Both the position numbers and the translations under genes were made by a program. DNA of 64,000 nt, taken from contig CAIVZR010000097.1 in the NCBI GenBank assembly GCA_903910445.1, positions 348-64,347 of the forward strand, given 5' to 3'. Origin of the DNA: an uncultured Bacteroidota bacterium (GTDB lineage: Bacteria > Bacteroidota > Bacteroidia > UKL13-3). This document shows positions 2,659-22,049 of this stretch, piece by piece (position 1 is the first letter of the stretch; each line of letters opens with the position of its first letter). Below the pieces are notes generated by a model. It did no database searches, was not told the DNA's origin, and was given only the letters and a program-made list of their open reading frames with translations.

Positions 2659-3858
2659 ATGGCAACTAAAGAGAAATTTGACCGCAGCAAACCACACGTA
2701 AACGTTGGTACTATCGGTCACGTAGACCACGGCAAAACTACTTTAACCGCTGCAATCACCAGCGTATTAGCCGCTGCTGGTCTTTCAGAAAAACGTTCTT
2801 TCGAATCAATCGACTCAGCTCCTGAAGAAAAAGAACGCGGTATTACCATTAATACTGCACACGTAGAATATACTACAGCAAATCGTCACTATGCACACGT
2901 TGACTGTCCAGGCCACGCTGACTATGTTAAGAACATGGTTACTGGTGCTGCACAAATGGACGGAGCAATCTTGGTAGTTGCTGCAACTGATGGTCCTATG
3001 CCACAAACTCGCGAGCACATTCTTTTGGCTCGTCAAGTAGGTGTGCCTCGTATCGTTGTGTTCATGAATAAAGTGGATATGGTTGATGATCCAGAAATTT
3101 TGGACATCGTTGAGATGGAAATTCGTGAGTTATTGAACAAATACGAATTCCCTGGAGACGAGATTCCAATCGTTCGTGGTTCTGCCTTAGGTGGTTTGAA
3201 TAATGATCCGATATGGGTTGAGAAAATCATGGAATTGATGAACTATGTTGATACTTATATCCCAGTTCCTCCACGTTTGACTGAACTTCCTATGTTGATG
3301 CCAGTTGAAGACGTATTCTCGATCACTGGTCGTGGTACTGTTGCAACAGGTCGTATCGAAAGAGGAGTGATCAACTCAAATGAAGCAGTTGAAATCATTG
3401 GTTTACAAAAAGAAGGTGAGAAAACATTAACTTCAGTTGTAACTGGTGTTGAGATGTTCCGTAAGATCTTGGATCGCGGTGAGGCTGGTGATAACGTAGG
3501 TTTATTGTTACGTGGTATTGAAAAAGAAGCTATCCGTAGAGGTATGGTTATTTGCAAGCCAGGTTCGGTAACTCCACATACACACTTCAAAGGCGAAATC
3601 TACGTATTGAGCAAAGATGAAGGTGGTCGTCACACACCATTCTTTAACAAATACCGTCCGCAATTTTATTTCCGTACCACTGACGTAACAGGTGAAATCA
3701 CCTTACCAGAAGGAGTAGAAATGATTATGCCAGGCGATAACGTAACAATCAATGTAGTTTTGATTACCCCAATTGCAATGGAAAAAGGTCTTCGTTTCGC
3801 GATCCGCGAAGGTGGACGTACCATTGGTGCAGGTCAGGTAACTGAAATCACTAAGTAA
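2659..3858 (+). CDS. tuf: Translation elongation factor Tu
   Basis: 399 aa with [23 protein letters not shown] and NKVD GTPase motifs. It sits immediately downstream of the tRNA Thr-Tyr-Thr-Gly cluster, the classical tuf context. Confidence 0.98.
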
Positions 3859-7907: not shown

Positions 7908-8486
7908 TTAACTGTTCTTGTTTATGTAGATAATTGCGTGAATAATTCCTGGAATCCAACAAAGGACTGTTAAAAGCAGATTCAATAGGATAGCATTTGT
8001 ATCATCCCAATCAGACACGATTCCAACAGCTACAGGAGGGATTAAAATGGCTAATATAATTAATACAATTTTTTCAACTGCATGATTATTGCTGCCACTG
8101 TGTTTCAATGCTTTTGCAATAGTAAAAGGTGCAGTGATTTTTGCATTGGGTACAAAAGTGCTTTTGTTTTTAAACATTTTAGCAATGCTTTTGGTAGTTA
8201 CTTGTTTAGTAACATTAGATTGTTCTACTGTTTTAACTGCTTGTTCAGCATTGAATGCTGGAGCAATTTCTAGTGTATTTCCAGCTTCAGCAACAGCAGG
8301 TGTTTCGGTTGCTTCGGTGGTGTTCACTTCAGAGGCTGCCGGGGTAGATTTTTCTACTTTTGCAGTTTCTTTAGCTTTAACGTTTCCACGTTGAATGCTA
8401 CCATAACGTTCGTTGCTACAAGAGGCCAAGAATAATACCACAGCTGAAATAATCGCCAAGGATTTTAGTGAGGAAAAAGATTTCAT
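7908..8486 (-). CDS. Lipoprotein with a C-terminal Pmp3/YqaE (UPF0057) proteolipid domain
   Basis: Lipobox FLASCS. A low-complexity A/T/E-rich linker follows. The C-terminal 50 aa (LILAILIPPVAVGIVSDW..NLLLTVLCWIPGIIHAIIYI) match the Pmp3/YqaE signature. Confidence 0.6.
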   Translation of the reverse strand: MKSFSSLKSLAIISAVVLFLASCSNERYGSIQRGNVKAKETAKVEKSTPAASEVNTTEATETPAVAEAGNTLEIAPAFNAEQAVKTVEQSNVTKQVTTKSIAKMFKNKSTFVPNAKITAPFTIAKALKHSGSNNHAVEKIVLIILAILIPPVAVGIVSDWDDTNAILLNLLLTVLCWIPGIIHAIIYINKNS

Positions 8487-10255: not shown

Positions 10256-11464
10256 TTAATTCATAATCTGAATTTTTCGCAGTAGTATTCCGTTAATCGA
10301 AATAAGCTGAATTACATAGAAACCTGATTTTGAAATTTCTAATATAAACGAGTTGCAATATGGTGTTGAGCTAAAAATTATGGAGCCAGACATGTCAAAT
10401 ACTATTGCTTTCTCAATTATAGCATCTCCATTAATTTCAATTTTTCCAGTGGAAGGATTTGGGTAGAATTTATATTTTAAGGAACAGTCAGATCCTTCTC
10501 TAATGGCTGAAAGTGCCGCCCCATTTCTTACACAGATAATATAATTCTTATTGGTTTTTTCTAAATAAGTAGTAATGCCAAAATGAGTATCCAGATACCA
10601 GGCTTTACTTGTTTGATTCGGAAGTGTAGTCGATGACCAGTAATTTCCAATTTTCATACCAGTAAAAAAAGTTAGATTGACTGACGGGTTTATTTGTCCT
10701 TCATCATTTATTGATTGCAGCTCCTTAATGTCAGGTAAGCGCCAATCGGAATATCCGGCAAATGACAATCCTTCTGCATCAATGAGCGCTTGCTCCCAAG
10801 TAACAGAGTCAATAAGTGGTACTTGCTTCCACATCAGACCAGTAAGTAAATCGGTAACTGTACCATCGTTATTGTTTATAAAATGATTGGGAATGGTTGA
10901 GGGGTTTGAAATATCTCGTACTGCTCTAACATGAAATTTTTTTGTTCCGCCGGCACTAATTGTTTCTAATTTGGGGTGATTTCCGATACCTCCACCAGCA
11001 TTCGTGCACCATACTTTTGATGCATCATTTGCTTGTTTCTGGCTGCTCCACCAGTACTCTGCCAAGGAGGCGGTGAAATAGGTAGTGTTCAATGCAGGGT
11101 TCGCTTTACTATGATTAAGTATGCTAAAGAGCTCATGGCAATTTGGTAAACGCCAGTCGCTAAATCCGCCCAAAGTTAGTGTATCGCAATAGATTGTTGC
11201 ATTCTCAATCGTCATTTCCCCACCATCGGTTTTTTGCCACATCAATCCAGTTACAGTATCTGTAACGGTACCATTCCCGTTTAGAATAAAGAATGGCGGA
11301 TTGAAATTGTAATCGGCATCTTCTCCAAAGGTTGTAGTATAACTGGTCGTTTGACCAGTTCCTGGCAACCGCTTCATGGTTTTTAAAACAGGTTGAGCAG
11401 ATAATAAAACACATATTATTAGAGGAAATATGTTCAGGATGAACTTTGTTGTTTTATTTAACAT
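10256..11464 (-). CDS. Secreted protein with two DUF1566 (Lcl C-terminal-like) domains and a T9SS C-terminal sorting domain
   Basis: Signal peptide. GLMWQK...GGFSDWRLPNCHEL and GLMWKQ...AGYSDWRLPDIKEL are DUF1566 signatures. The tail KYKFYPNPSTGKIEI...GFYVIQL is a type-A T9SS CTD. Confidence 0.7.
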   Translation of the reverse strand: MLNKTTKFILNIFPLIICVLLSAQPVLKTMKRLPGTGQTTSYTTTFGEDADYNFNPPFFILNGNGTVTDTVTGLMWQKTDGGEMTIENATIYCDTLTLGGFSDWRLPNCHELFSILNHSKANPALNTTYFTASLAEYWWSSQKQANDASKVWCTNAGGGIGNHPKLETISAGGTKKFHVRAVRDISNPSTIPNHFINNNDGTVTDLLTGLMWKQVPLIDSVTWEQALIDAEGLSFAGYSDWRLPDIKELQSINDEGQINPSVNLTFFTGMKIGNYWSSTTLPNQTSKAWYLDTHFGITTYLEKTNKNYIICVRNGAALSAIREGSDCSLKYKFYPNPSTGKIEINGDAIIEKAIVFDMSGSIIFSSTPYCNSFILEISKSGFYVIQLISINGILLRKIQIMN

Positions 11465-11530: not shown

Positions 11531-12085
11531 TTAGGTCAAGAATCTTTCAACGGCCCAAAATAGGGCAATCGATGAAATTATTATTGATAATGGTTTAACA
11601 AATTTTGTTTGATACCATACTTTTTTTTGAATCAAACGAGCGACAAAAAAGTAACAAAACGCAATTACAGTTAATTGTGCGGCTTCCACTCCAAGGTTAA
11701 ATGCGAGCAATGCGATGAGAAATTTGTTTTGAGGAATTCCTATTTCGTTAAGTGCAGATGCAAATCCTAAACCATGTAATAATCCAAATAGGAAGATGAA
11801 AGCCAATCGCCAAACTTGCAATTTAGTTTCTATTAAATTCTCCAATGCAACAAAAAAGATGGAGAGTGCAATAGTTCCTTCAATAACACTGGAATTAAAA
11901 TTCAAATACCCTAAAGTAGCTAAAGCCAAGGTGCTTGAATGCGCAATGGTAAAGATTGAACATTGTATTATAGCACTTTTGATTTTTGAATTAAAGAAAA
12001 ATAGAGAGATTATAAACAGCATATGATCGTAACCAAAAGGGATTACGTGTTCAAATCCTAGGCTGAAATAACTCGGAAATATCAT
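11531..12085 (-). CDS. HupE/UreJ-2 family membrane protein (putative Ni/Co-type metal permease)
   Basis: 184 aa with 5-6 TM segments, an N-terminal FEHVIPFGYDHMLF (HxxxGxDH-like) motif and a second LLHGLGFASAL motif. It starts 5 bp after the stop of the YHYH gene. Confidence 0.5.
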   Translation of the reverse strand: MIFPSYFSLGFEHVIPFGYDHMLFIISLFFFNSKIKSAIIQCSIFTIAHSSTLALATLGYLNFNSSVIEGTIALSIFFVALENLIETKLQVWRLAFIFLFGLLHGLGFASALNEIGIPQNKFLIALLAFNLGVEAAQLTVIAFCYFFVARLIQKKVWYQTKFVKPLSIIISSIALFWAVERFLT

Positions 12086-12090
12086 TTCAT

Positions 12091-13707
12091 TTAATTAATT
12101 ATTAGTTTGGCAGTATAGGTAGTGTTTAAAGTTTGAATAAGTATAATATATACCCCTTTTTGGAAATTACTGGTGTTTATCTTTTCAGTAAATGAGGGAG
12201 TATCGTAAACCACTTTGCCACTGCTTGTAAAAATTGAAACTTTTGTTATCTCATTTAATGCGATTTCATTACTAACATTAATAAATAGGTCCTTGCTATT
12301 TGGATTTGGATAAATTTGGATTTTGTTTTTACTGGTGTTATCGCTTTTTACTCCCTGAGTTAAAATACATGGCTTAAATCCATTATAATTTGAAGTCGTG
12401 GTGCCACCTGGACTGATAAAATTGAAGGTATAGACACCATTGCTAGTCCAGCTATAGCTCACCTTGTAAGTTTGCCCATTGAGAGTATATGAAAGAATAT
12501 ATCCATTGGTTCCATTAGCGATACAACTTGTTATCACGGCACCTTTTAATGGAGTACCTGCTGGCCTTATTGGATTAGCAGATGCTTGAGGAATTATTTG
12601 ATGCGTGGTGTCTTCAGTAATTTGCCCTACCATATTTCCAATCATATAAGGTGCAGTTGCAGTTCCATGATAATGGTAAACACCATTGGTTCCATAGTGT
12701 CCATGATTGGTATCAAGCGATTTCATTGATGAACCATCGGGTTCATAACTTCCATATACCGCATAGCCATCCAAGCCATAAGCAATAGGAAGTGTTTTGC
12801 TGGTAGTGCCATATAAATGTAAGGGTGCAGTGTGGTAGTGATAATCATCAGCACGACCGCAATGACCTCCCCAATTATCAAGTTGCCCGTCTAAATAAGC
12901 ATCGACTCCTGTATTTGTGTAAGGATTGAAAATTGCGATACCATTTACAGCAATTGCAATAGCTCCACGTGAAAAATGAGATGGATTAACAGGCACGGGA
13001 ACCGAAGCAATCACAGGGTTTAATGGAATACTCCACGCATTTGAACCAATATAACATTGTGGAATTGGCACTTGTTGTTGCCAGCCAGTAATTCCAGTCA
13101 TCATGGCATGAGTCGTTGGGATGCCTTGTGATTCAACATAGAAGTAGTTATTATCCCAATGTGTCACAATATTGGGTTTAAATGGAGTGAAAGCTGAGTC
13201 AACACTTATTGGATTACTTGTTGAGTTTATCCTTCTTATATAATTTGATGTGAAACTATAACCGACAGAAACTAAACCAACTATTAAGAAATAGTTTAGA
13301 TATTTTAGCTGAACTATTTTGAACCTAAGATAAATGATTGCCCAAATTACCAAAAGAATCACTGTAATTATTCCAGCTCTTAAAAAGTTGAAAGATGGTT
13401 TTGATATTGGGCTAGATACGGTCGGTGTTTCAATTTGAGCATTAAGTTGCTCAATAGCGGTATACCTTTTAATTATATAGGCTTGATCTTTTGCTGAGAA
13501 TGATGACAAAGGATAATGTATCGTTATGTTATCTGACAATTGAAGATAAACCTCATTGTGTTTTACCATCAATAATGAAGCCTTAACCTTTTGATGATTG
13601 TTCAGATCCCATTCGTGAAGTTTGAGTTGATGCATATCCAAGTTGTGGCTGAACATGGCAACATTCAAGAGTATGGCAACTATGGTACTTATAAATTTAC
13701 GATACAT
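12091..13707 (-). CDS. YHYH-motif domain protein with a T9SS C-terminal sorting domain
   Basis: Two YHYH boxes (GRADDYHYHTAPLHLY and NGVYHYHGT) separated by a His-rich stretch (DTNHGHYG). Hydrophobic segments lie at residues ~110-160. The C-terminus IQIYPNPNSKDLFI...YTAKLIIN is a T9SS CTD. Confidence 0.6.
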   Translation of the reverse strand: MYRKFISTIVAILLNVAMFSHNLDMHQLKLHEWDLNNHQKVKASLLMVKHNEVYLQLSDNITIHYPLSSFSAKDQAYIIKRYTAIEQLNAQIETPTVSSPISKPSFNFLRAGIITVILLVIWAIIYLRFKIVQLKYLNYFLIVGLVSVGYSFTSNYIRRINSTSNPISVDSAFTPFKPNIVTHWDNNYFYVESQGIPTTHAMMTGITGWQQQVPIPQCYIGSNAWSIPLNPVIASVPVPVNPSHFSRGAIAIAVNGIAIFNPYTNTGVDAYLDGQLDNWGGHCGRADDYHYHTAPLHLYGTTSKTLPIAYGLDGYAVYGSYEPDGSSMKSLDTNHGHYGTNGVYHYHGTATAPYMIGNMVGQITEDTTHQIIPQASANPIRPAGTPLKGAVITSCIANGTNGYILSYTLNGQTYKVSYSWTSNGVYTFNFISPGGTTTSNYNGFKPCILTQGVKSDNTSKNKIQIYPNPNSKDLFINVSNEIALNEITKVSIFTSSGKVVYDTPSFTEKINTSNFQKGVYIILIQTLNTTYTAKLIIN

Positions 13708-13789: not shown

Positions 13790-15505
13790 TTAACGGAGCA
13801 GTATAATCTTCTCACTTTGCATTCCAATTTTATCACCCGTTAGAATAAAATAATAGTTACCTGCAGGCAATGGCATTCCAAAGCCATTATTCCCATCCCA
13901 AATAATTTGAAATTTCCCTTCAGGAACGATACTCTCATCTATTAATTTTCGAACGGGCATTCCATTCTCATTATAAATGACAAGATTTATTAAATCAGCG
14001 GTCTTTAATAAAAACTCAATTTTAGTTTCTGTTTGAAATGGATTCGGATATATTAGCTCTTCAGAATAATTACTATTCCAAAGTACTGGAACGCCCGTCG
14101 ATGCAGAATCGTAGCAATTCTTAACACCAATAAAATAAGTTGCAGAAACATCCTTATTATGGCGTGTCCCAGTTTCATTAGCCGCTTTGTAAGCTCTTAC
14201 ATATTCAACTTTAACGCCTAAGGGGCTTACTGTTACTCTAAGGTGACCAGAGTTAGGAAGAATTTGTCCTTGAAAATACCCATATGCATTTGCCTGGGCC
14301 GCGCTCGCAAAATTAGGGTGACTAGGTTGAGGCGTTTCTTGATAAATCATACAGTCTTTTTCCTGCTTACCAAAGAAATGATCATGACCATGAAAGAAAA
14401 TATTCACTCTGTTTTCTGCTAATAAATCTTTAATAGGTTTGTACCACCCTGGCCGATTTGTTGCGAAACCACTGGTGCCATCGAGATTCTTGCCTCCCCA
14501 TTCATAACGGTCGGCAAACTCTACCCCACCACGACCTTCAGGGTCTCCTCCAATAATTTGATGAGAGAAAACAAACTTGAATTTCGCTTTGCTGTTTTCT
14601 AATGTAGATTTTAACCAATCATATTGAACCTTGCCCAAGGTCCAACGCCAGCCATTAAGGGAATCGGGTTTTACCTGAGTATACCAATAAGGGTCGAGTA
14701 CTATAAAGAGCGCATCACCCCAAGTCCAGGCATAATAATTTTGTCGCTGCCCAATATATTTATTGGTGGTTGTATCCCCTGTATAAAAGTTATCAGGAGC
14801 AGGATTTACAAAGTACTTCTTGCGTTCTATAGCATCCCAAACTGCAATATTATTTGCCGTTCCGTTATTATACCAGCCCGCTTCACCCTCGTGGTTGCCA
14901 AGTGCAATAAATACTGGAACTGAATGAGAAGCGGTTTCATAGGCTTTTCGTAAAAGGTTGCAACGGTATGGAATCGTATCATGAGGAACTACTTTGGAGG
15001 CATTCCATAACTTATCAGTCATTAAAAAATCACCAAGGTCTATCATGAAATCGGGATTATCTTCCAGCTGATTTCTTAAGCAGCGTTGATAGATTGCAGT
15101 ATCAGTTTGTTCGTCCATATGCGGGTCTGCTTGCACTACAAAAGTAAATGTGCTTCCGGCTGATCGTTGCGTTTGAAAAGTATATTCAGGCCTGCTGGTA
15201 TAATTAGTTAAGCCAGGCTTTCGATAGTTAACTCTATAAAAATATTTTGTATTAGCACTTAATCCAATAATATTTATTTCGGCAGATGCGCTATCACTAA
15301 ATCGCTGCCATGATGTTTGATTGGAATATGTTCCAGAACTTGTGCCATATTGCACTTGTACCTCAGCCGAATCTTTGAACATCACTTGGACCGTAATACT
15401 ATGATCAGTGGGGCGCCCAAGCATTTCTAAATGAAGGATTGTTTGACTTTGTATGCAGGTTTTTATTAGGAAGAGTAAGATCAGAAGGGTAAAGGGTTTT
15501 TTCAT
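13790..15505 (-). CDS. Purple-acid-phosphatase-like metallophosphoesterase, T9SS cargo (paralog 1)
   Basis: Signal peptide, then an Fn3-like PAP N-terminal domain (..NTKYFYRV). Metallophosphoesterase motifs follow in order: ADPH, GDF, GNHEGE, SHQ, GHDHFF. It has a C-terminal T9SS CTD (LIYPNPFQTETKIEF...YYFIL). Confidence 0.8.
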   Translation of the reverse strand: MKKPFTLLILLFLIKTCIQSQTILHLEMLGRPTDHSITVQVMFKDSAEVQVQYGTSSGTYSNQTSWQRFSDSASAEINIIGLSANTKYFYRVNYRKPGLTNYTSRPEYTFQTQRSAGSTFTFVVQADPHMDEQTDTAIYQRCLRNQLEDNPDFMIDLGDFLMTDKLWNASKVVPHDTIPYRCNLLRKAYETASHSVPVFIALGNHEGEAGWYNNGTANNIAVWDAIERKKYFVNPAPDNFYTGDTTTNKYIGQRQNYYAWTWGDALFIVLDPYWYTQVKPDSLNGWRWTLGKVQYDWLKSTLENSKAKFKFVFSHQIIGGDPEGRGGVEFADRYEWGGKNLDGTSGFATNRPGWYKPIKDLLAENRVNIFFHGHDHFFGKQEKDCMIYQETPQPSHPNFASAAQANAYGYFQGQILPNSGHLRVTVSPLGVKVEYVRAYKAANETGTRHNKDVSATYFIGVKNCYDSASTGVPVLWNSNYSEELIYPNPFQTETKIEFLLKTADLINLVIYNENGMPVRKLIDESIVPEGKFQIIWDGNNGFGMPLPAGNYYFILTGDKIGMQSEKIILLR

Positions 15506-15538: not shown

Positions 15539-17227
15539 TTAATGATTGACAATTACTTTTCGAACAACATGGCTTTTTTCTGTGTCGACATGAATGGTGT
15601 ATATTCCATTAGGAATATCTTTTAAATTTATTACCTCTGAATGTGATGGCAATACAATTTGACCTAATGCGTTCACCAAATTTATTTGATGAATGATGAT
15701 GGATTCATCCATTTTAATTGAAATTTGATCATTGGCTGGGTTAGGGAATACCTGGAAGGCTTCATCTAGATTTGGATTTTCAATTCCTGAATTAGCGCAT
15801 TTGCCAATGGTGTATGAAAACCCAATTTCTCCATTTTTATGTATTCCACTAAGCGTATCGGCTGGTAAATAAGCTCTCACAAAATCTACTTTTATGCATG
15901 TAGGATTAACTGTAACTCTAATATGCCCAGTGCCAGGAATTGTATCAGCAGTGTATGCACCTGCATTAGCGAGCATTCCAATCTGGTATGTAGAGTCGGC
16001 AGCCATGGGGACTTCCTGGTAGGTTACACTATCAAGTATTTCATGGGCAAACAGATGATCATGGCCTTGAAAGAAAATATTTACATGGTTATCGATGAAG
16101 AGCTGATGAATTGTTTTGGGCCAGCCCGGTCGATAAGTGGCAAATTTGTTGGTATTGCCATCAAGGCCACCCCATTCGAATTGGGTAGCATTGGTAATTC
16201 CCCCTCGGCCTTGTCCACGAATATGATGTGCAAATACAAATTTATATTTTGATGTGCTGGATTCGAGTGTGTTTTTAAGCCAGGTATATTGAGGTAAACC
16301 TAGCGACCACGCCCATTTTTGAGGCTTACTGGAGGTGTCGCATTCGTCGCGATAAACGTCAAGAACAATAAATTGTGCATCTCCCCAGGTCCATGCAAAG
16401 TAGTTCTCTGGATTCCCAATACCATAGGGTTCATTATCAGTATTTCCACTGTAAAAGCCGTTCGGATAAGGATTTGGATAATAATATTTTCGCCATTGAG
16501 TTCCCCATACACAAAGGTTATTGGGAGGAGAAAAACTGTAGTAGTAGTCGTTCTCGCCTTCATGATTGCCAAGACAAATATAAAACGGTATAGAATGACA
16601 AACACTTCCTAAAAACGGCCTGTAGTCCTTATGAAGTGAATCAAGTTCTGCGGAGGTAATGGTGAACGGATTATGATCATCTCCAAAAATATCACCCAAA
16701 GAAAGCATGAAGTCGGGATTATCCTTTGCTTGATTATTTAATGTAACCTGATACATGCTTTTTACACCTTTAATATCGTATAAATGCTCATCCGCTTCAA
16801 TTGTGAAAGTGAAAGTACTTCCTTTAGATCTAGCAGTATGAAAAGAATATTCTGGAGAAGGGACGAATGTGCCCGTACTTGTTAGGTGGTAAAGTACTCT
16901 ATAAAAATATTTGGTGTCAGGAAGCAAGGGATGTAAATCAATCTCGTCAGGCTGGTTGGCTTTACCTGCATATTGTTTTGAAACCTGCGTGTAATTTCCC
17001 GAATTGATTCCAAATTCAAAATAGTAAATCATGTTTTGATCAAATACGATACTGGCAGTAATGGAGGTATCGGTAGGCCTACCCAAAATTATAGATTTAG
17101 TTTGCGAATAACTGCTTTCATAAAGAGTAAAAAGACTAATAATGATTAAAATTATTCGCAAAATGAATGTATGTTTGAGTTTTAGGCACTCATAGTTAGA
17201 TTCTAAGTCACACTTGTGATAATTCAT
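15539..17227 (-). CDS. Purple-acid-phosphatase-like metallophosphoesterase, T9SS cargo (paralog 2)
   Basis: Same architecture as its neighbour (..DTKYFYRV; ADEH, GDIFGDD, GNHEGE, AHH, GHDHLF), with a T9SS CTD (FQVFPNPANDQISIK...GIYTIHV). The proteins are roughly 35-40% identical by eye. Confidence 0.8.
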   Translation of the reverse strand: MNYHKCDLESNYECLKLKHTFILRIILIIISLFTLYESSYSQTKSIILGRPTDTSITASIVFDQNMIYYFEFGINSGNYTQVSKQYAGKANQPDEIDLHPLLPDTKYFYRVLYHLTSTGTFVPSPEYSFHTARSKGSTFTFTIEADEHLYDIKGVKSMYQVTLNNQAKDNPDFMLSLGDIFGDDHNPFTITSAELDSLHKDYRPFLGSVCHSIPFYICLGNHEGENDYYYSFSPPNNLCVWGTQWRKYYYPNPYPNGFYSGNTDNEPYGIGNPENYFAWTWGDAQFIVLDVYRDECDTSSKPQKWAWSLGLPQYTWLKNTLESSTSKYKFVFAHHIRGQGRGGITNATQFEWGGLDGNTNKFATYRPGWPKTIHQLFIDNHVNIFFQGHDHLFAHEILDSVTYQEVPMAADSTYQIGMLANAGAYTADTIPGTGHIRVTVNPTCIKVDFVRAYLPADTLSGIHKNGEIGFSYTIGKCANSGIENPNLDEAFQVFPNPANDQISIKMDESIIIHQINLVNALGQIVLPSHSEVINLKDIPNGIYTIHVDTEKSHVVRKVIVNH

Positions 17228-17250: not shown

Positions 17251-17754
17251 TTAATTATTTGATTTCTTTTTTGGTTGATTGTCGGGTCTGAAATAATCTC
17301 GTATTTCTAGCACGAGATGCTCAAATTTCTCTAATTGTTCAGGAGTACATATTGCTTTGAGCTGTTGGGCTTGTTCATATCTCAGCAATTCCATTTTGTA
17401 CTCATTTTGTGAAATCTCAAGCGCCAAATTCTTTATCAATGTTTCATCGGTATTTTTATTAAACATGGAGGCATTCATGGAATCCCGCTCTTGACGGATA
17501 ATAATAGCAAGTTGGCGTTCCTTTTCAAAAAAGAAGGCGCGAAGATTTTTTATTTGTTCGGCTTGTTTTTCCGAAAGTTGCAACTCCTCTTTTAGAACCC
17601 CTGAAACATCTCTATATTCTGCTGAGGGAAATAATTCAGGTTCATGCCGATGACCATTAAATTTCCAAATCAAAATCCCAAAAAAAAGCGCATTTATGAA
17701 AACCAATAAGTAGGTTACCCGTTTCCACATTTTCTTTTCTGTGAATATTTCCAT
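17251..17754 (-). CDS. Membrane-anchored periplasmic LTXXQ-motif (Spy/CpxP-like) protein
   Basis: One N-terminal TM helix. LSEKQAEQIKNLR and EQAQQLKAICTPEQLEKFE resemble LTXXQ periplasmic repeats. It is the third gene of an ECF sigma / anti-sigma module. Confidence 0.5.
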   Translation of the reverse strand: MEIFTEKKMWKRVTYLLVFINALFFGILIWKFNGHRHEPELFPSAEYRDVSGVLKEELQLSEKQAEQIKNLRAFFFEKERQLAIIIRQERDSMNASMFNKNTDETLIKNLALEISQNEYKMELLRYEQAQQLKAICTPEQLEKFEHLVLEIRDYFRPDNQPKKKSNN

Positions 17755-17756
17755 GA

Positions 17757-18110
17757 TTAGTAAGAAGCGGAACTTGGATTAATTAATAATTCTTTTGAAA
17801 TAAGTTTCAACTTATTATCATTAGCATTTGACTCCCTCGGGTTAGTTGCCAGGAAAAATGACAATAACAAAACATTTATTATCACCAAAGAAGCCATCGT
17901 ATAGATTAATTTTTGAGGATCGTTCTTAGCAATCCCATCTTTTTTGAAATTGTATAATTTTTTTTGAAGGCTATCATTCCATTCAATAGAGGGTTGAATA
18001 GTATCAAGTGATTCAAAGTTGCTAAGAATCTTATCTATATTTTGATTTAATTCGGATTCATTCATGGTATTAATTCTTTTTTTGACGATATTTAGTTTCA
18101 ATTCACGCAC
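17757..18110 (-). CDS. Putative anti-sigma factor (single-pass membrane protein)
   Basis: 117 aa with one central TM segment (LIYTMASLVIINVLLLSFFLA). It lies 3 bp downstream of the ECF sigma gene on the same strand, the canonical position. Confidence 0.45.
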   Translation of the reverse strand: MRELKLNIVKKRINTMNESELNQNIDKILSNFESLDTIQPSIEWNDSLQKKLYNFKKDGIAKNDPQKLIYTMASLVIINVLLLSFFLATNPRESNANDNKLKLISKELLINPSSASY

Positions 18111-18112
18111 TT

Positions 18113-18682
18113 TTAATCAGAGTTTGATAAAATTTGTTTTAAATTTTCCCTCATTTTCACCTTTGCTCTGTAAACAAGTGACTCAACACTTCGGGTACTG
18201 GTTTGCATTATTTCGGCTATTTCTTGATTATTATATCCTTCAATTCTACCCAAGGTAAAGGCGATTCGTTGGTTATCAGGGAGTTTGTTTAATGCGATGT
18301 GTAGTTCTCTGTTTCTTTCTTTGTTTAAGATGGTTTCATCCGATTTACTGCCACCTTCCAACCAATTAGATATTTCATCTAGATGCAATATTTTGGCAAT
18401 GGATGAAAATCGTTTTTTTCGACGTTGTCTTTTCAATTCATCGATGCTTTTTGTCACTGCAATTCTATATATCCAGGTAGAAAGCTTGGAATCTCCCCTG
18501 AAAAATTGAATGGATTGAAATACCTCGACAAAAACTTCTTGGGCAATATCCTGAGCCTCTTCTTTATTTAATAAAAAACGGTAACAGGTGTTGATTACTT
18601 GAGATTGGTAAAGTTTAACCAACGATTTGAATGCAGATTCAGAACCGGCCTTTAGATTGTTTATAAACTCCAAATCATCCAT
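18113..18682 (-). CDS. ECF-type RNA polymerase sigma-70 factor
   Basis: 189 aa. Region 2 (AQDIAQEVFVEVFQS...FRGDSKLSTWIYRIAVTKSID) and region 4 (LPDNQRIAFTL..IEGYNNQEIAEIMQTSTRSVESLVYRAKVKMRENL). Confidence 0.9.
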   Translation of the reverse strand: MDDLEFINNLKAGSESAFKSLVKLYQSQVINTCYRFLLNKEEAQDIAQEVFVEVFQSIQFFRGDSKLSTWIYRIAVTKSIDELKRQRRKKRFSSIAKILHLDEISNWLEGGSKSDETILNKERNRELHIALNKLPDNQRIAFTLGRIEGYNNQEIAEIMQTSTRSVESLVYRAKVKMRENLKQILSNSD

Positions 18683-18950: not shown

Positions 18951-20828
18951 CTATTCTTCCTTTATTGCTAGTTTGTAGGTGTAGTGATTGTTTTCATTTT
19001 CTAATACTAGGAAATATAATCCAGCTGCAATATCATTAATTGAAATTGAATTTTGCTCGATGGGGCCTCTTTGTATCTCAGTTCCATTGGGCGACACTAA
19101 TCGATAATCGTATTTTTGTTCGATTGGCAGTGATGTGATTTGAAGCATTGATTGCCGTTTGCATGGATTGGGGTAAATTGAAGGTATTGGTTGATGGGCC
19201 AGTTTAATCCCTGCAATAGCATAGAACTCCAAGGCTCCAACATTCGTCATAGGGCTTTGTCTTGGCCGGTTGAGATAATCAGAGTTTAGGCTCGATAATG
19301 GTGCTAATGCGTTATAGGCTAAGGCAAGGTGTGCTTGGCTTGGTTGAATGGTTTGGAGTTGAAGGGTGTCGATAAGCAAATTCGTGCTTACTGGAAGGTT
19401 ATTTCTAATTAAATCGGTGGTGCTTAAATAGGAATGAGATTTTACCCAGATATTGTTGCTAAACTGAATGTCTTTCGGTCCAGGATGTTGAGGATGGAAG
19501 TTCATAATTATTGGAGTCATCGCAAGAAAAGCGGCAGTATCATAAGTGAAAATGTTATTCGAGATTCGAATATTTTGAAGGTATCCGTAATTGCTATTGG
19601 TGAGGATATTATAACTAGGATAATAAACTCTAACGAGCGCGCCTCCAATGGCCCCAGGTAATCCCATTACACCAATGATGGTATTGTTGTAAATCCACAC
19701 ATTCCGAATACAGTTGATTCCAATAGAGCCAGTAGCCCCCTCCCAAAATCCAATGGCCTGTCCAACGTTCTGGAAAATATTATTATAGATGAACATACTA
19801 TCTACATTTGAGAAAGTTTCATTTGGCAGAATGCATTTTGTTTGGCAGTTATTAAAAGAGGGCAGGCTACCAAAAACACAGGAGCCTTCATTAGCAATAA
19901 GAATGCCGCTCGATGCCCAAATTTTATCGGTATCGGCTGGACAATTACGCCAATATTGAGTTCCAATACCAGGGGTATTATATAAAATATTCTTGTAGAT
20001 ATAGAGCTTTGATGAATTGTCGTTATATAAATTTAAACCATTATCGTGCAACCTATTTTGTGATGCTTGGCAGCGAATGCTATTCTGAAAATTAAGCCCT
20101 TCACCCCGAGAGTAACCAACCTCACAATTGAACACCGAACCATCGGTACAATTGAAGAGCTTAAAACCACTGGGCCACTGACAAGGTGAGGTAAGAGACC
20201 CATTGCCTGGTCGGCTTGAGTAACGAAAAGCAGAATTGTTAATTAGGAGTGTGTCGACGCTGGTAAAGAGTGCGCAAAAGGAGCCAACGCTATCAACAGA
20301 AACATGATCAACCAGGATATTGTTTTGTCGTGGATAGGTTAAATTGTTTCTATTGCAATATATTCCAACCCCGGTGGAATATTTAAGTGTTATGTTTTTT
20401 ATAAAAATATGATCTCCAATTAAAACCAATAAGTTACTATTGGCGAATGTGTTTTGAGTACCGCCAATTACGACGTCGCCCAACCCTTCGATACTTACAT
20501 TTCGAAAGGTGTTGCCATTTTTCCAATTGCTAATGGTTTGTTGAAAACCGCTATTGGTGGCATAATAGCCGGGTTTCATCTTTATTAAACCATAGGCATT
20601 CCCGCCATTAACACCGGCCACTCCAAATGGCAATTTAAGTATGGCGGCGTTAAAAGTTTTTACAGGTAATGTGTTGGTTCCTGGATTGTTGTCATCGCCG
20701 TTAGGATCCATGTATACGGAATCGGTGATGGCATATTTGCCAGTATTGACAATAGGAGTGTTTACTACAAACTGGGCGTGTAGTGAAATCGAGAGTGCAA
20801 AAAGCACAATCAAGGTTTTAATTCTCAT
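18951..20828 (-). CDS. Secreted right-handed parallel beta-helix (pectate-lyase-fold) protein, T9SS cargo
   Basis: Many N-x-I/V beta-helix rungs (NNIFQNV, NNTIIGV, NNIFTYD, NNIWVKS) and a T9SS CTD (IYPNPCKRQSMLQI...GLYFLVL). The start was moved to the internal Met of MRIKTLIVLFALSISLHAQ (signal peptide). The upstream 16 codons of the longest ORF look non-coding. Confidence 0.65.
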   Translation of the reverse strand: MRIKTLIVLFALSISLHAQFVVNTPIVNTGKYAITDSVYMDPNGDDNNPGTNTLPVKTFNAAILKLPFGVAGVNGGNAYGLIKMKPGYYATNSGFQQTISNWKNGNTFRNVSIEGLGDVVIGGTQNTFANSNLLVLIGDHIFIKNITLKYSTGVGIYCNRNNLTYPRQNNILVDHVSVDSVGSFCALFTSVDTLLINNSAFRYSSRPGNGSLTSPCQWPSGFKLFNCTDGSVFNCEVGYSRGEGLNFQNSIRCQASQNRLHDNGLNLYNDNSSKLYIYKNILYNTPGIGTQYWRNCPADTDKIWASSGILIANEGSCVFGSLPSFNNCQTKCILPNETFSNVDSMFIYNNIFQNVGQAIGFWEGATGSIGINCIRNVWIYNNTIIGVMGLPGAIGGALVRVYYPSYNILTNSNYGYLQNIRISNNIFTYDTAAFLAMTPIIMNFHPQHPGPKDIQFSNNIWVKSHSYLSTTDLIRNNLPVSTNLLIDTLQLQTIQPSQAHLALAYNALAPLSSLNSDYLNRPRQSPMTNVGALEFYAIAGIKLAHQPIPSIYPNPCKRQSMLQITSLPIEQKYDYRLVSPNGTEIQRGPIEQNSISINDIAAGLYFLVLENENNHYTYKLAIKEE

Positions 20829-21019
20829 TTGGAAAGTAAAAATATAGAAAAGAATCAAATCTCCAAGTGGAAACATCGGGATAAAACTCTTTGATTGGGA
20901 GTGATATTAGTGATATACTTTGGAATCGCACTTAAATAGTCCTTCTTTAATTTCAAGAAGATCAATTGATATACCCTAAGATAATTAGAACAGAATCATG
21001 ACGACAGATTCTGATTCTT

Positions 21020-21415: not shown

Positions 21416-21595
21416 GGGTTGGTTTATTAATATTAAAATTTAACCAGCTTAACGCTGAAATGGTGAATATAGTATTTCATGCCAACTAACTGTTATTGAT
21501 TTTATTTTAAGAGACGATGGATTTAGTAGATTTAAGGTTGCAAAGGCTGGAGCCTGCTTCATATTTCGTGTCACCCTTCCGGTAAATTAGATTTG

Positions 21596-21628
21596 TAAAA
21601 ATATAAAAGGTCAGCAAAATTGCTGACC
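21596..21628 (-). terminator. Rho-independent terminator after the degenerate tRNA copy
   Basis: Minus-strand hairpin GGTCAGCAA-ttt-TGCTGACC followed by TTTTATATTTTT. Confidence 0.65.
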
Positions 21629-21648
21629 TTGATTCTCTTGTAGCGGGA

Positions 21649-21716
21649 GCAGTCCCGATAGCTATCGGGATCGAACCTACGCCCTTCCGATTTCGGAAGG
21701 GTATGAGCCCGACGAG
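21649..21716 (-). pseudogene. Degenerate 3'-partial copy of tRNA-Met(CAT) carrying two hairpin insertions
   Basis: It shares CTCGTCGGGCTCATA..CCC..GTAGGTTCGA..CTGCTCCCGCTACA with the intact tRNA 45 bp upstream. It lacks the acceptor 5' strand and D-arm. It carries inserted hairpins TTCCGAAATCGGAA and CCCGATAGCTATCGGG. Confidence 0.6.
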
Positions 21717-21725
21717 TTTTTGATA

Positions 21726-21754
21726 AATAAAAAAGGCCAGCAAAATTGCTGACC
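21726..21754 (-). terminator. Rho-independent terminator after tRNA-Met
   Basis: Minus-strand hairpin GGTCAGCAA-ttt-TGCTGGCC followed by TTTTTT. It is a near-identical copy of the terminator at 21596-21628. Confidence 0.65.
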
Positions 21755-21764
21755 TTGATTCTCT

Positions 21765-21838
<74 letters not shown>

Positions 21839-22049
21839 TTGTTTATAAGGGCGCAAAGGTAATGTTTCTTATTGTGTTATACAAGTTTATTCGAATTTAG
21901 TTCGAAGCCAATCCTGGCTATGTTTTGAATATGATGGATTTATGGTATTTTTGTTTGAGAAAATCAGCAACTATTTACTTTTTATGCAAAAAGGGAAATA
22001 ACCTATCATTACCCTAAACATCAAGTAAATAGCGCTATTTCATCAGTCT

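Follow-up and report, generated by a model that had tools for sequence, protein, structure and literature searches.

The YHYH protein and the HupE/UreJ-2 permease (HupE2) that are encoded side by side in the window, the whole 64,000-nucleotide stretch of Bacteroidota DNA analysed here, may represent a split, trans-encoded variant of the anglerases, a reading that we prefer but hold tentatively. In anglerases a His1 domain (Ang-1 or Ang-2) is fused to a HupE/UreJ-2 permease (Franco Cairo et al., Nat Commun 2025; PMC12537917). The His1 domains of these PF13795 fusions bind Cu2+ (Kd ~60–75 nM) and Ni2+ (PMC12537917). An earlier interpretation made from the letters of the window (the sequence-only reading) had proposed a secreted metal binder that feeds the permease. 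As an idea, a capture module feeding a HupE/UreJ-2 permease has a published experimental precedent in the anglerases; the form that it would take here is different.

The operon and its relatives

Both genes are members of a minus-strand operon of eight genes (18682→10256; all features below lie on this strand), which encodes in order an ECF sigma factor, an anti-sigma-like protein, a CnrX-like protein, two T9SS metallophosphoesterases, the YHYH protein, HupE2 and a DUF1566/Lcl_C protein. The best explanation of this arrangement is a conserved, ECF-sigma-headed operon for transition-metal handling in the cell envelope, of which the YHYH and HupE2 genes are the central part.

The ECF sigma factor (189 residues; 18113..18682) matches Sigma70_r2 (E 2.4e-16), Sigma70_r4_2 (E 2.3e-14) and Sigma70_ECF (E 3.2e-08), and homologues are found upstream of the cluster in 13 of the 52 loci with sufficient upstream sequence. 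Its gene is abutted by that of a 117-residue single-pass membrane protein (17757..18110), which contains one hydrophobic helix (LIYTMASLVIINVLLLSFFLA) and gave no match in the Pfam search; in related loci the same slot is filled by an ORF of approximately 94–103 residues. By analogy with the position of CnrY in the nickel/cobalt-sensing module CnrYXH (PMC6851896) this protein may act as the anti-sigma factor. The third protein (167 residues; 17251..17754) is a membrane-anchored periplasmic Metal_resist/LTXXQ protein that is CnrX-like by family and position (PF13801, E 2.1e-08, 34.8 bits with a cut-off of 29.2; PF07813, E 6.9e-06). These three proteins are encoded together at the operon head, a trio repeated in related loci, and the layout of ECF sigma factor, single-pass protein and anchored Metal_resist protein is that of CnrYXH. 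However, the 16 homologues of the 167-residue protein conserve an RDSMNxxMFN motif, Cys136 and several glutamates but no histidine, so that the CnrX ligand set of three His, one Glu and one Met is not kept: CnrX His42, His46, Glu63 and His119 are without conserved counterparts, and Met93, Met97 and Cys136 are conserved here instead. Unlike those of CnrYXH, the targets in the window are also not an efflux pump.

The phosphoesterases pointed out next to the pair by the sequence-only reading are indeed two metallophosphoesterases with T9SS-type C-terminal domains. Metallophosphoesterase 2 (562 residues; 15539..17227) matches Metallophos (E 2.1e-07) and Por_Secre_tail (E 5.5e-11). Metallophosphoesterase 1 (571 residues; 13790..15505) matches Metallophos (E 8.9e-10), and the purple-acid-phosphatase N domain and PhoD also match weakly, below threshold; at its C-terminus FlgD_ig is above cut-off and TIGR04183, at 22.8 bits, just below the 23-bit cut-off. 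Each of the two enzymes is found in 27 of 52 related loci. The last gene (10256..11464) encodes a 402-residue T9SS protein with two Lcl_C/DUF1566 stretches (E 1e-55), the C-terminal domain of which is just sub-threshold in Pfam and above threshold in TIGR04183.

The cluster recurs in classes of Bacteroidota and in Ignavibacteria, Kapabacteria and Chlorobiota MAGs. Across 58 informative loci it is Lcl_C that accompanies the YHYH protein most constantly (49 loci), and the two are fused in L056, L068 and P0125. HupE2 is present in 25, directly following the YHYH gene in only 8, and locus L093 is a minimal YHYH–HupE2 pair. The His1 module and membrane hairpin of the YHYH protein (see below) persist in the 33 clusters from which HupE2 is absent, and feeding HupE2 therefore cannot be the sole role of this protein.

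Accessory enzymes vary between loci, with multicopper oxidases, sulfatases or MbnPH elsewhere taking the place of the phosphoesterases. In related loci the core is joined by copper-type genes (T9SS multicopper oxidases, 11 ORFs; MbnP, 5; MbnH, 5), by AhpC/TSA redoxins (11) and P-type ATPases that carry a metal-binding domain (3), and by an FGE-sulfatase in one locus; sulfatases (13), chondroitinase B, GH2 and DUF4861 are also among the accessory genes. MbnP binds copper (PMC11951088), and MbnPH and AhpC_TSA genes are recurrent in copper-uptake operons (PMC9426467). No multicopper oxidase, MbnP or redoxin is encoded in the window, where the accessory enzymes are phosphoesterases and not copper enzymes. 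Judged only from the company of the core in other genomes, the most likely metal is copper, at which these genes hint; nickel or another metal is a less likely alternative.

Architecture of the YHYH protein

The YHYH protein (538 residues; 12091..13707) consists of a signal peptide, a His1 tail, an SHD1-like domain, a two-helix hairpin, the YHYH domain, an Ig-like domain and a T9SS C-terminal domain (CTD). The position of the true start had been questioned. The annotated start is taken as genuine because the full-length architecture is kept at 48–64% identity in at least 119 other homologues listed.

A signal peptide is predicted at residues 1–20 (13648..13707; ...VAMFS|H). In all 62 homologues the residue at −1 is Ala, Ser, Cys or Gly and that at +1 is His, with a median presequence of 20 residues; cleavage would fall just ahead of the invariant His21. 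This tail (HNLDMH...) leads into a β domain (residues 21–95 in all; 13423..13647) that is matched by Foldseek to the SHD1 domain of Sla1 (2hbp; TM 0.70, r.m.s.d. 1.5 Å), the Pfam SHD1 model giving E 0.004, below threshold. Homology of this domain to Ang-1 or Ang-2 was considered and rejected, given its SHD1 fold, in contrast to the Ig-like sandwich of Ang-1: no chain of Ang-1 (PDB 9GCE) is among the best 50 of 1,369 Foldseek matches, and a phmmer search of the PDB returned nothing.

The two hydrophobic segments previously noted at about residues 110–160 correspond to a predicted two-helix transmembrane hairpin (residues 108–160; 13228..13386), modelled by AF2 as helices 108–128 and 131–160, and two hydrophobic 19-mers are found in 61 of the 62 homologues. 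The loop between the helices has 2.9 Lys/Arg against 0.4 Asp/Glu in the homologues and is therefore probably cytoplasmic. In the homologue alignment there is no conserved cleavage site after the second helix, the residues ahead of a conserved YSF being variable and not small. The hairpin, its basic loop and the linker of approximately 11 residues that follows suggest that the protein is probably held in the inner membrane and not simply secreted, contrary to the freely secreted binder first envisaged. A T9SS cargo passes through a soluble, anchor-less periplasmic intermediate, and with a hairpin predicted in nearly every homologue this protein appears not to do so.

The YHYH domain (residues 165–400; 12508..13215) confirms the family assignment, with PF14240 matching residues 225–321 (E 8.6e-12, 45.8 bits with a cut-off of 25; model positions 2–110 of 193). 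The boxes DDYHYHTAPLHLY (residues 287–299) and GVYHYHGT (342–349) and the motif DTNHGHYG (332–339) are present as had been described, and all three are invariant or nearly so in the alignment of 62 homologues, the invariant residues including H282, D287, D288, H290, H292, D332, H337, H345 and H347. The conserved YHYH motif with its His triad and Asp that defines the domain (PMC7824862) is represented by DDYHYH (287–292), H282 and D332. Identity to the window's copy is 70–87% across the homologues. The AF2 model of the domain (pLDDT 81.6, pTM 0.84) resembles nothing in the PDB (best E 2.1); its predicted fold is shared with the YHYH protein of cyanophage S-RIM14 (Foldseek E 1.4e-07, TMq 0.52) and a YhyH protein of Megaviridae (E 4.6e-05).

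Other PF14240 proteins, including those of phage tails and baseplates, have the first YH[YH]H box with its surrounding Gly, Asp and His residues. When a canonical YHYH paralogue is aligned, NYHHH stands at the first box and YCYF at the second. From this comparison the second box is lineage-specific, as the NHGH motif appears to be specific to the subfamily. The His1 N-module with its predicted membrane anchor is likewise found only here: all 54 representatives identified belong to the same YHYH family or are fragments of it, and none is a fusion of the N-module to HupE2. The proposal that the YHYH boxes are metal ligands thus gains from the invariant His and Asp residues, and loses as regards the second box; the best candidate for metal capture, the invariant His at the predicted mature N-terminus, had been overlooked. 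Candidate roles for the YHYH domain are a metal site, a metal-dependent enzyme or a lectin partner.

The protein ends in a type A T9SS CTD (residues 463–538; 12094..12321), as proposed, with PF18962 matching residues 465–537 (E 1.4e-11, 44.9 bits with a cut-off of 27) and TIGR04183 scoring 42.4 bits (cut-off 23). Foldseek matches it to the translocon-bound CTD of NucA (8glk_D; TM 0.83), to which the family profile gives E 1e-08. What purpose such a domain serves on a protein predicted to be anchored in the inner membrane is not obvious.

Short permeases and a shared His1 tail

HupE2 (184 residues, about six transmembrane helices; 11531..12085) is a HupE/UreJ-2 permease, as originally assigned (PF13795, E 3.9e-43, 147.3 bits with a cut-off of 24.5; model positions 1–153 of 156). 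The reported gap of five nucleotides (atgaa) separates the YHYH stop codon (TAA, 12093–12091) from its ATG at 12085. Ten residues are invariant in 31 HupE2 sequences (H13, D20, H21, H49, E69, N83, H104, N130, E134 and Q137), and H13, D20, H21, H49, E69 and H104 account for the family signature of a first-helix His...Asp-His with further intramembrane His and Glu. The spacing of H21 and H49, 28 residues, is that of His201 and His229 in the predicted site of Ang-2–HupE/UreJ-2. Canonical HupE/UreJ nickel/cobalt permeases (PF04955), such as HupE of Rhizobium leguminosarum, are similarly small multi-helix inner-membrane proteins with the first-helix signature; unlike these, the window protein has no signal peptide, and there are no hydrogenase or urease genes nearby. 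Precomputed Pfam matches to PF04955 are recorded for close HupE2 homologues; in the Pfam scan of the window protein itself no match to this model came within E ≤ 0.01.

HupE2 begins directly at the GFxHVxPxGxDH motif, without signal peptide or His1, whereas relatives at ≤53% identity have a signal peptide followed by HT[IV]NY. Among the 120 closest relatives, 41 are such short forms (mostly 183–192 residues, starting at the TM1 motif), which include all 35 closest, and 71 are long forms with an N-terminal extension (mostly ~219–235 residues). A recognisable signal peptide followed by His, with the consensus HT[IV]NY, is present in 61 of the 71. The long forms of Bacteroidota (e.g. L084, 7875–8543) are approximately 50% identical to the window permease and share its intramembrane His, Asp and Glu residues. 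HupE2 is best explained as a truncated form, which would have kept these residues and lost the signal peptide and His1 tail of its closest long relatives.

The two forms also differ in their neighbourhoods. A short HupE2 lies within a YHYH cluster in all 30 genome loci that carry one, in all three close metagenome loci and in five of six contig look-ups, the exception being P0192, a solitary short HupE2 whose neighbours are an AraC regulator and a TonB-dependent receptor with HmuY. In all four cases seen, long forms lie in clusters of a TonB-dependent receptor or PorV-like gene, two DUF4331 genes and a TPR gene, without YHYH. The YHYH–HupE2 pairing originally proposed holds when viewed from the short permease, although it is not self-contained, HupE2 being present in under half of the clusters and Lcl_C in most.

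The His1 element of the long permeases resembles the tail of the YHYH proteins: their mature N-terminus has the consensus H-T-[IV]-N-Y, against H-[NDT]-[IL]-[ND]-Y in the YHYH proteins. The window's HNLDMH has Met, not Tyr or Phe, at position 5 and fits at four of the five positions. The motif is absent from the 753 other ORFs of the loci. H-x-[IL]-[ND]-Y occurs in 16 of 28 YHYH proteins with HupE2 in the cluster and in 2 of 31 without it (Fisher p = 3.5e-05), a comparison of a motif of only five residues among sequences related to one another; the states do not group together on the tree, where the 59 tips fall into 22 runs. A functional link between the YHYH and HupE2 genes is supported by the occurrence of short HupE2 in YHYH clusters and by the minimal pair in L093.

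Proposed mechanism, alternatives and significance

In the proposed split anglerase the YHYH protein would be exported by Sec, and removal of the signal peptide would expose the invariant His on a flexible tail ahead of the SHD1-like domain. The hairpin would then anchor the protein in the inner membrane, which would place both the His1 module and the YHYH domain on the periplasmic side, close to the membrane. There the protein may provide in trans the His1 capture element that the short HupE2 has lost, taking a metal ion and handing it to the mouth of HupE2 for import. As in the anglerases, a periplasmic module whose mature N-terminus is predicted to be an invariant His (62 of 62 homologues) is associated with a PF13795 permease, metallophosphatases are encoded in the vicinity and the same capture-and-feed mechanism is envisaged. 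The two differ in that module and permease are here separate genes, and in that the module carries its own predicted hairpin, behind which come a YHYH domain and a T9SS CTD. The present system is also from Bacteroidota, whereas Ang-1 is from Pseudomonadota and Ang-2 from Actinomycetota (PMC12537917).

The logic, although neither the folds nor the permease families, recalls the CopC/CopD and YcnI/YcnJ copper-uptake pairs mentioned in PMC9426467. In these pairs an extracytoplasmic copper binder with an N-terminal His, membrane-tethered in the case of YcnI, is encoded beside an inner-membrane importer.

The conservation of the YHYH domain is far above the need of a simple metal site and typical of enzymes, which lends some weight to a different, though rather unlikely, account of the operon as one of exoenzymes. 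The YHYH domain would then be a hydrolase that depends on a metal, or would bind glycans as a partner of the lectin-like Lcl_C. Once freed from its anchor, the protein would leave the cell by the T9SS along with phosphoesterases, sulfatases and oxidases for the processing of external organic matter, HupE2 topping up a cofactor metal or being incidental. YHYH has been predicted to be a Zn-dependent hydrolase, often fused to lectins in phage tails (Iyer et al.; PMC7824862), and the constancy of Lcl_C and its fusions, the accessory sulfatases, chondroitinase B, GH2 and DUF4861, and the bona fide type A signal are all in keeping with this. It leaves unexplained the invariant His1, the conserved hairpin and the loss from HupE2 of the very N-terminal element present in the YHYH protein; moreover, no signal-peptidase-like site is conserved behind the second helix, and the searches brought out no known hydrolase of similar structure. 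That the two genes are neighbours by chance, a membrane protein having been packed into the same operon as T9SS cargo without any specific link, is very improbable: HupE2 is indeed missing from over half of the clusters and varies in position, but the association recurs across Bacteroidota classes and beyond, the short and long permeases show a reciprocal dichotomy, and the tail motif correlates with the presence of HupE2.

It is improbable that, as the sequence-only reading had it, a T9SS-secreted surface protein with the YHYH boxes as its metal site captures metal outside the cell, feeds HupE2 and so supplies the phosphoesterases. The invariant box residues, the CTD, the 5-nucleotide spacing and the metallophosphatases that also neighbour Ang-2–HupE/UreJ-2 genes, near which they are enriched (PMC12537917), speak for it, but a surface protein is separated by the outer membrane and the periplasm from an inner-membrane permease and cannot hand metal to it directly, free secretion is hard to square with the conserved hairpin and short linker, and the second box is not conserved in canonical members. 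Supply of the phosphoesterase metal centres is itself unsupported; unrelated enzymes replace the phosphoesterases in many clusters, and a HupE-type importer would drain metal into the cytoplasm from the periplasm, where T9SS cargo folds. A tethered YHYH protein that, with HupE2, loads T9SS metalloenzyme cargo before export, the CTD keeping it near the PorV/translocon route, is unlikely, if slightly less so. This would account for a CTD on an anchored protein, and most of the recurrent enzyme-type variable members are metalloenzymes or depend on a metal-requiring maturase (among them haem peroxidases, an M10 peptidase, binuclear phosphoesterases, four-copper oxidases, and sulfatases next to an FGE gene), several having a T9SS CTD; the long-form clusters, too, hold a PorV-like gene and a CTD-bearing DUF4331 protein. 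Against it, the accessory enzymes use differing metals, and Brito 2010, as cited in PMC12537917, describes proteins of the HupE family as importers.

A bolder extension of the split anglerase, which we regard as improbable, is a trans-envelope relay: with the hairpin beside HupE2, the CTD would dock unsecreted at PorV or the translocon, and metal would pass between an outer-membrane route, the YHYH site, the His1 tail and the permease, or onto departing metalloenzyme cargo. If true, this would be the first inner-membrane-anchored protein to dock via a T9SS sorting domain and the first function for the YHYH fold. The conserved sorting domain on a predicted inner-membrane protein is a puzzle for the secretion field.

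YHYH proteins form a large family in bacteria, phages, giant viruses and diatoms, for which we know of no solved structure and no tested function; to our knowledge the link between HupE/UreJ-2 permeases and metal capture dates from no earlier than 2025 and concerns fused proteins alone. The locus puts YHYH in a setting of metal handling where copper proteins (MbnPH, multicopper oxidases) recur, and the hypotheses for this locus are open to standard genetics and metal analytics in cultivable carriers. The comparative signature of short against long permeases, a shared His1 pentapeptide and its correlation with gene presence points to a widespread, uncharacterised protein of Bacteroidota that seems to supply the His lost by a neighbouring HupE/UreJ-type permease. 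If this is true, a capture element and its permease can be split over two genes.

The operon and its YHYH protein

The 538-aa YHYH protein (12091..13707, minus strand) is the product of the sixth of eight minus-strand genes that run head to tail from 18682 to 10256 with gaps of 0-82 nt. The first three genes encode an ECF sigma factor, a 117-aa single-pass membrane protein and a membrane-anchored Metal_resist/LTXXQ protein (17251-17754). These are followed by two paralogous metallophosphoesterases with T9SS-type C-terminal domains, the YHYH protein, the 184-aa HupE_UreJ_2 permease (HupE2, 11531..12085) and finally a protein with two Lcl_C/DUF1566 domains and a T9SS C-terminal sorting domain (CTD). 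A terminator scan found no minus-strand terminator-like site between the operon genes. The promoter scan was uninformative (37 found against 37.4 expected), and the Rfam search gave tRNAs as its sole matches, with no riboswitch or other regulatory RNA. The tRNA genes include a cluster of four (2146-2573) just upstream of the EF-Tu gene (2659-3858) and a single tRNA-Met (21766-21838) overlapped by a 110-aa ORF at 21507-21839.

The observations of the sequence-only reading are confirmed. The larger protein belongs to the YHYH family (PF14240, E 8.6e-12, residues 225-321), contains all of the quoted His-rich motifs and ends in a T9SS sorting domain (PF18962, E 1.4e-11; TIGR04183, 42.4 bits against a cut-off of 23), while the smaller is a HupE/UreJ-2 protein (PF13795, E 3.9e-43). 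The junction between the two genes is as tight as described, the TAA stop at 12093-12091 being separated by five bases from the ATG at 12085, and the hydrophobic segments are real, at about residues 108-160. A mis-called start or a fused gene behind these segments is ruled out, as the layout is kept end to end in 119 other listed homologues at 48-64% identity. T9SS cargo genes are plentiful in the window, as shown by a 900-aa CTD protein with a weak sortilin/Vps10-type repeat match (27605-30307) and by other CTD proteins; one of 641 aa, with no other Pfam match, lies on the same strand just upstream of the operon (18951-20876). Elsewhere in the window a 192-aa protein (7908-8486), unusually long for the Pmp3 family, has a Pmp3 proteolipid match confined to its last 50 residues.

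In a 62-sequence alignment of the YHYH protein and its relatives (YHYH-TM), the residue that follows the 20-aa signal-peptide-like presequence is always His (His1), and the residue before it is always A, S, C or G. Downstream of the His1 tail two hydrophobic 19-mers are found in 61 of the 62 sequences. The loop between them contains on average 2.9 K/R and 0.4 D/E, and by the positive-inside rule is therefore placed in the cytoplasm. The topology predicted from these features is a cleaved signal peptide, a periplasmic His1 tail and small domain, one helix running out-to-in and a second in-to-out, and a periplasmic YHYH domain reached by a linker of ~11 residues. The second helix is ruled out as an internal signal peptide, the residues preceding the conserved YSF not being small.

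The AlphaFold2 model of the full protein is usable (mean pLDDT 82). Its N-domain has the SHD1 fold (Foldseek against the PDB: 2hbp, TM 0.70, r.m.s.d. 1.5 Å), and its C-terminus matches T9SS CTDs, including the translocon-bound CTD of NucA (8glk_D, TM 0.83). The YHYH domain has no Foldseek match in the PDB when taken from the whole-protein model. Modelled alone (pLDDT 81.6, pTM 0.84) its best PDB match has an E of 2.1, and the model matches phage and giant-virus YHYH proteins (E 1.4e-07). The one published view of YHYH that was found is a prediction of a tail-associated hydrolase in which three His and one Asp form a Zn site (PMC7824862); nothing was found in the literature on PF13795 or PF14240 beyond the papers cited here. 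The second YHYH box is specific to the subfamily, since the canonical paralogue reads YCYF there. The N-module (residues 1-165) is essentially confined to the YHYH-TM family: a search of 1.84 billion representatives gave 54 matches at E <= 0.001, each a YHYH-TM protein or a fragment of one, with no fusion of the N-module to HupE2 among them.

Two forms of HupE2 and a shared N-terminal tail

The 120 closest listed relatives of the window HupE2 split cleanly into 41 short and 71 long forms, with 8 unclassified. The short form, typically 183-192 aa, includes all 35 closest matches (52-99% identity to the window protein) and starts directly at GFxHVxPxGxDH. The long form is typically about 219-235 aa, is at most 53% identical to the window protein, and carries an N-terminal extension in which a signal peptide and His are recognisable in 61 proteins, with the consensus H-T-[IV]-N-Y (for example AQA/HTINYDLAKL in locus L084). 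In the eight adjacent cases the preceding gene lies -26 to +45 nt from HupE2, which leaves no space for HupE2 to extend further upstream, either in the window or in related clusters.

The two forms also occupy different neighbourhoods. Every one of the 30 genome loci with a short-form HupE2 has it within a YHYH cluster, and so do the 3 closest metagenome loci and 5 of 6 contig look-ups; the metagenome scan used HupE2 as a single-protein query and returned 5 loci, and an alignment query would reach further. One related locus (L093) consists of a minimal YHYH–HupE2 pair only. The sole exception, P0192, is a true short form that adjoins an AraC regulator and a divergent TonB-dependent receptor–HmuY pair; at the exception locus (L086, 6942-8564) the short-form HupE2 stands alone with in-frame stops upstream. 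YHYH is absent from all four long-form neighbourhoods (L084, 3951-13132; L094, 361-7681; L095, 653-7684; L096, 525-7681), which instead read TonB-dependent receptor or PorV-like protein, two DUF4331 proteins, TPR protein and HupE2. One of the two DUF4331 proteins carries a T9SS CTD; a literature search on DUF4331 gave nothing.

Taken over 117 YHYH proteins, the consensus of the mature N-terminus is H-[NDT]-[IL]-[ND]-Y, which matches the long-form HupE2 tail at positions 1, 3, 4 and 5. None of the 753 remaining ORFs of the loci has the pattern [ASGC]H.[ILVM][DN][YF] near its N-terminus. The motif is present in 16 of 28 YHYH proteins with HupE2 in the cluster and in 2 of 31 without (Fisher p = 3.5e-05, a value that overstates independence because the sequences are related). 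On a neighbour-joining tree of the YHYH domain only, the motif states are interleaved (22 runs in 59 tips), and therefore the association with HupE2 does not come from one clade. The window's own tail, HNLDMH, is off the motif at position 5, where it has Met. Where the cluster has no HupE2, the tail of the YHYH protein tends to be rich in His, as in HDAHQ, HSGHDH, HEGGHH, HHAHDG and HSTEHH (mature N-termini of this kind are found at loci such as L028, L042, L017, L057, L008 and L029).

The cluster across genomes

At least 587 stretches matched in the search for species-level genomes encoding relatives of the YHYH protein, and 80 loci were fetched, almost all from metagenome-assembled genomes (MAGs). 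Flavobacterium, Hymenobacter, Spirosoma and Haliscomenobacter are among the genera named in the MAG labels. The operon gene set recurs on the same strand in Chitinophagia, Saprospiraceae, Flavobacteriia and Cytophagia-type MAGs, and also in those of Ignavibacteria, Kapabacteria and Chlorobiota. The pairing of YHYH with HupE2 proposed from the sequence does recur in other genomes; however, among the 58 loci with at least 3.5 kb of downstream sequence HupE2 is present in 25 and immediately follows YHYH in 8, so that the tight junction of the window is one arrangement of a modular cluster. Lcl_C, present in 49 of the same 58 loci, is the more faithful partner of YHYH. Natural fusions of YHYH-TM and Lcl_C in one chain of 829-844 aa occur in L056 (5998-8487), L068 (5998-8520) and the protein P0125, and in the two loci HupE2 directly follows the fusion. 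Both phosphoesterases are found in 27 of the 52 loci whose upstream sequence is long enough. A conserved CTD protein of ~410 aa, with the sorting signal as its sole Pfam domain, usually lies between YHYH-TM and Lcl_C (L004, 7624-8865; L014, 7595-8827; L007, 7395-8660) and in some loci upstream of YHYH-TM (L001, 4706-5974); tblastn against the window gave matches at the level of the CTD only, and the protein is absent there.

A single Pfam run over 128 otherwise unlabelled same-strand neighbours of the related loci returned Por_Secre_tail (38), sulfatase (13), multicopper oxidase (11), AhpC/TSA redoxin with CxxC (11), MbnP (5), the di-haem MauG-like peroxidase MbnH (5), a canonical YHYH + CTD paralogue (4) and a P-type ATPase with a metal-binding domain (3). 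Individual loci read MbnP–MbnH–canonical YHYH–(redoxin)–YHYH-TM or sigma/anti-sigma/LTXXQ–multicopper oxidase–YHYH-TM–Lcl_C–HupE2, and one reads multicopper oxidase–redoxin–sulfatase–FGE–CTD protein–YHYH-TM–HupE2–Lcl_C. The trio of MbnP, MbnH and canonical YHYH + CTD protein adjoins YHYH-TM in L016 (2864-5935), L010 (3921-5962) and L090 (3430-6547), as well as in L013 and L078. MbnP binds copper and is matured by MbnH (PMC11951088), and copper-uptake operons typically contain MbnPH-like and AhpC_TSA genes (PMC9426467). The trio suggests a link to copper handling in Bacteroidota for the entire YHYH family, and the gene context of the related loci points, only indirectly, to copper. The window variant has phosphoesterases and none of the copper genes: tblastn for MbnP, multicopper oxidase, redoxin and the canonical YHYH paralogue gave CTD-level matches only.

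Relation to anglerases and possible function

A search for proteins with His as the mature N-terminus (Franco Cairo et al., 2025; PMC12537917) has described PF13795 permeases fused to one or the other of two unrelated domains, Ang-1 and Ang-2. Each domain binds Cu2+ (Kd about 60-75 nM) and Ang-1 binds Ni2+ too; the copper in Ang-1 is held by a mono-histidine brace (PDB 9GCE). These 'anglerases' were proposed to fish for metal ions and feed the permease, and Ang-2 genes have metallophosphatases among their most frequent neighbours (PMC12537917). The window system shares this logic and is filed here as one that would work like an anglerase. It is set apart from Ang-1 and Ang-2 because the His1 module and the permease are encoded by separate genes, and because the module brings its own membrane hairpin, precedes a YHYH domain and a T9SS CTD in the chain, and has an SHD1-like fold with no similarity to 9GCE (among the best 50 of 1,369 Foldseek matches and in a sequence search of the PDB). 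The three regulatory genes of the operon share the CnrH/CnrY/CnrX layout (PMC6851896). However, the histidines of CnrX are not conserved in the Metal_resist/LTXXQ family of the operon, which keeps Met93, Met97 and Cys136 (RDSMNxxMFN plus one Cys, and no conserved His), and its ligand chemistry, if any, is different from that of CnrX.

It is tentatively proposed that the YHYH protein sits anchored in the inner membrane next to the truncated HupE2 and provides in trans the N-terminal His element that related permeases carry themselves. A periplasmic metal ion, probably copper and possibly nickel, would then be captured and handed to HupE2. Such a model leaves without account the strong conservation of the YHYH domain (70-87% identity across homologues), the T9SS sorting domain on an anchored protein, and the role of the YHYH protein in the half of the clusters that have no HupE2. 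The main rival, which is considered rather unlikely, takes YHYH as a metal-dependent hydrolase or lectin partner of Lcl_C, exported with other enzymes, and HupE2 as peripheral; the Lcl_C counts and fusions speak for it, the link between tail motif and HupE2 against it.

The interpretation offered by the sequence-only reading, a secreted binder that feeds both the permease and the phosphoesterases, is only partly supported. It is the weaker account because a surface protein could not reach an inner-membrane permease, homologues keep the membrane anchor, and other enzymes can take the place of the phosphoesterases, as they do elsewhere. A more adventurous alternative would make the protein a metallation station or a trans-envelope relay, with the CTD as a docking device. 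YHYH is a large domain family without known function, the YHYH-TM architecture is odd for T9SS, and the locus would represent a variant of a recently described kind of system.
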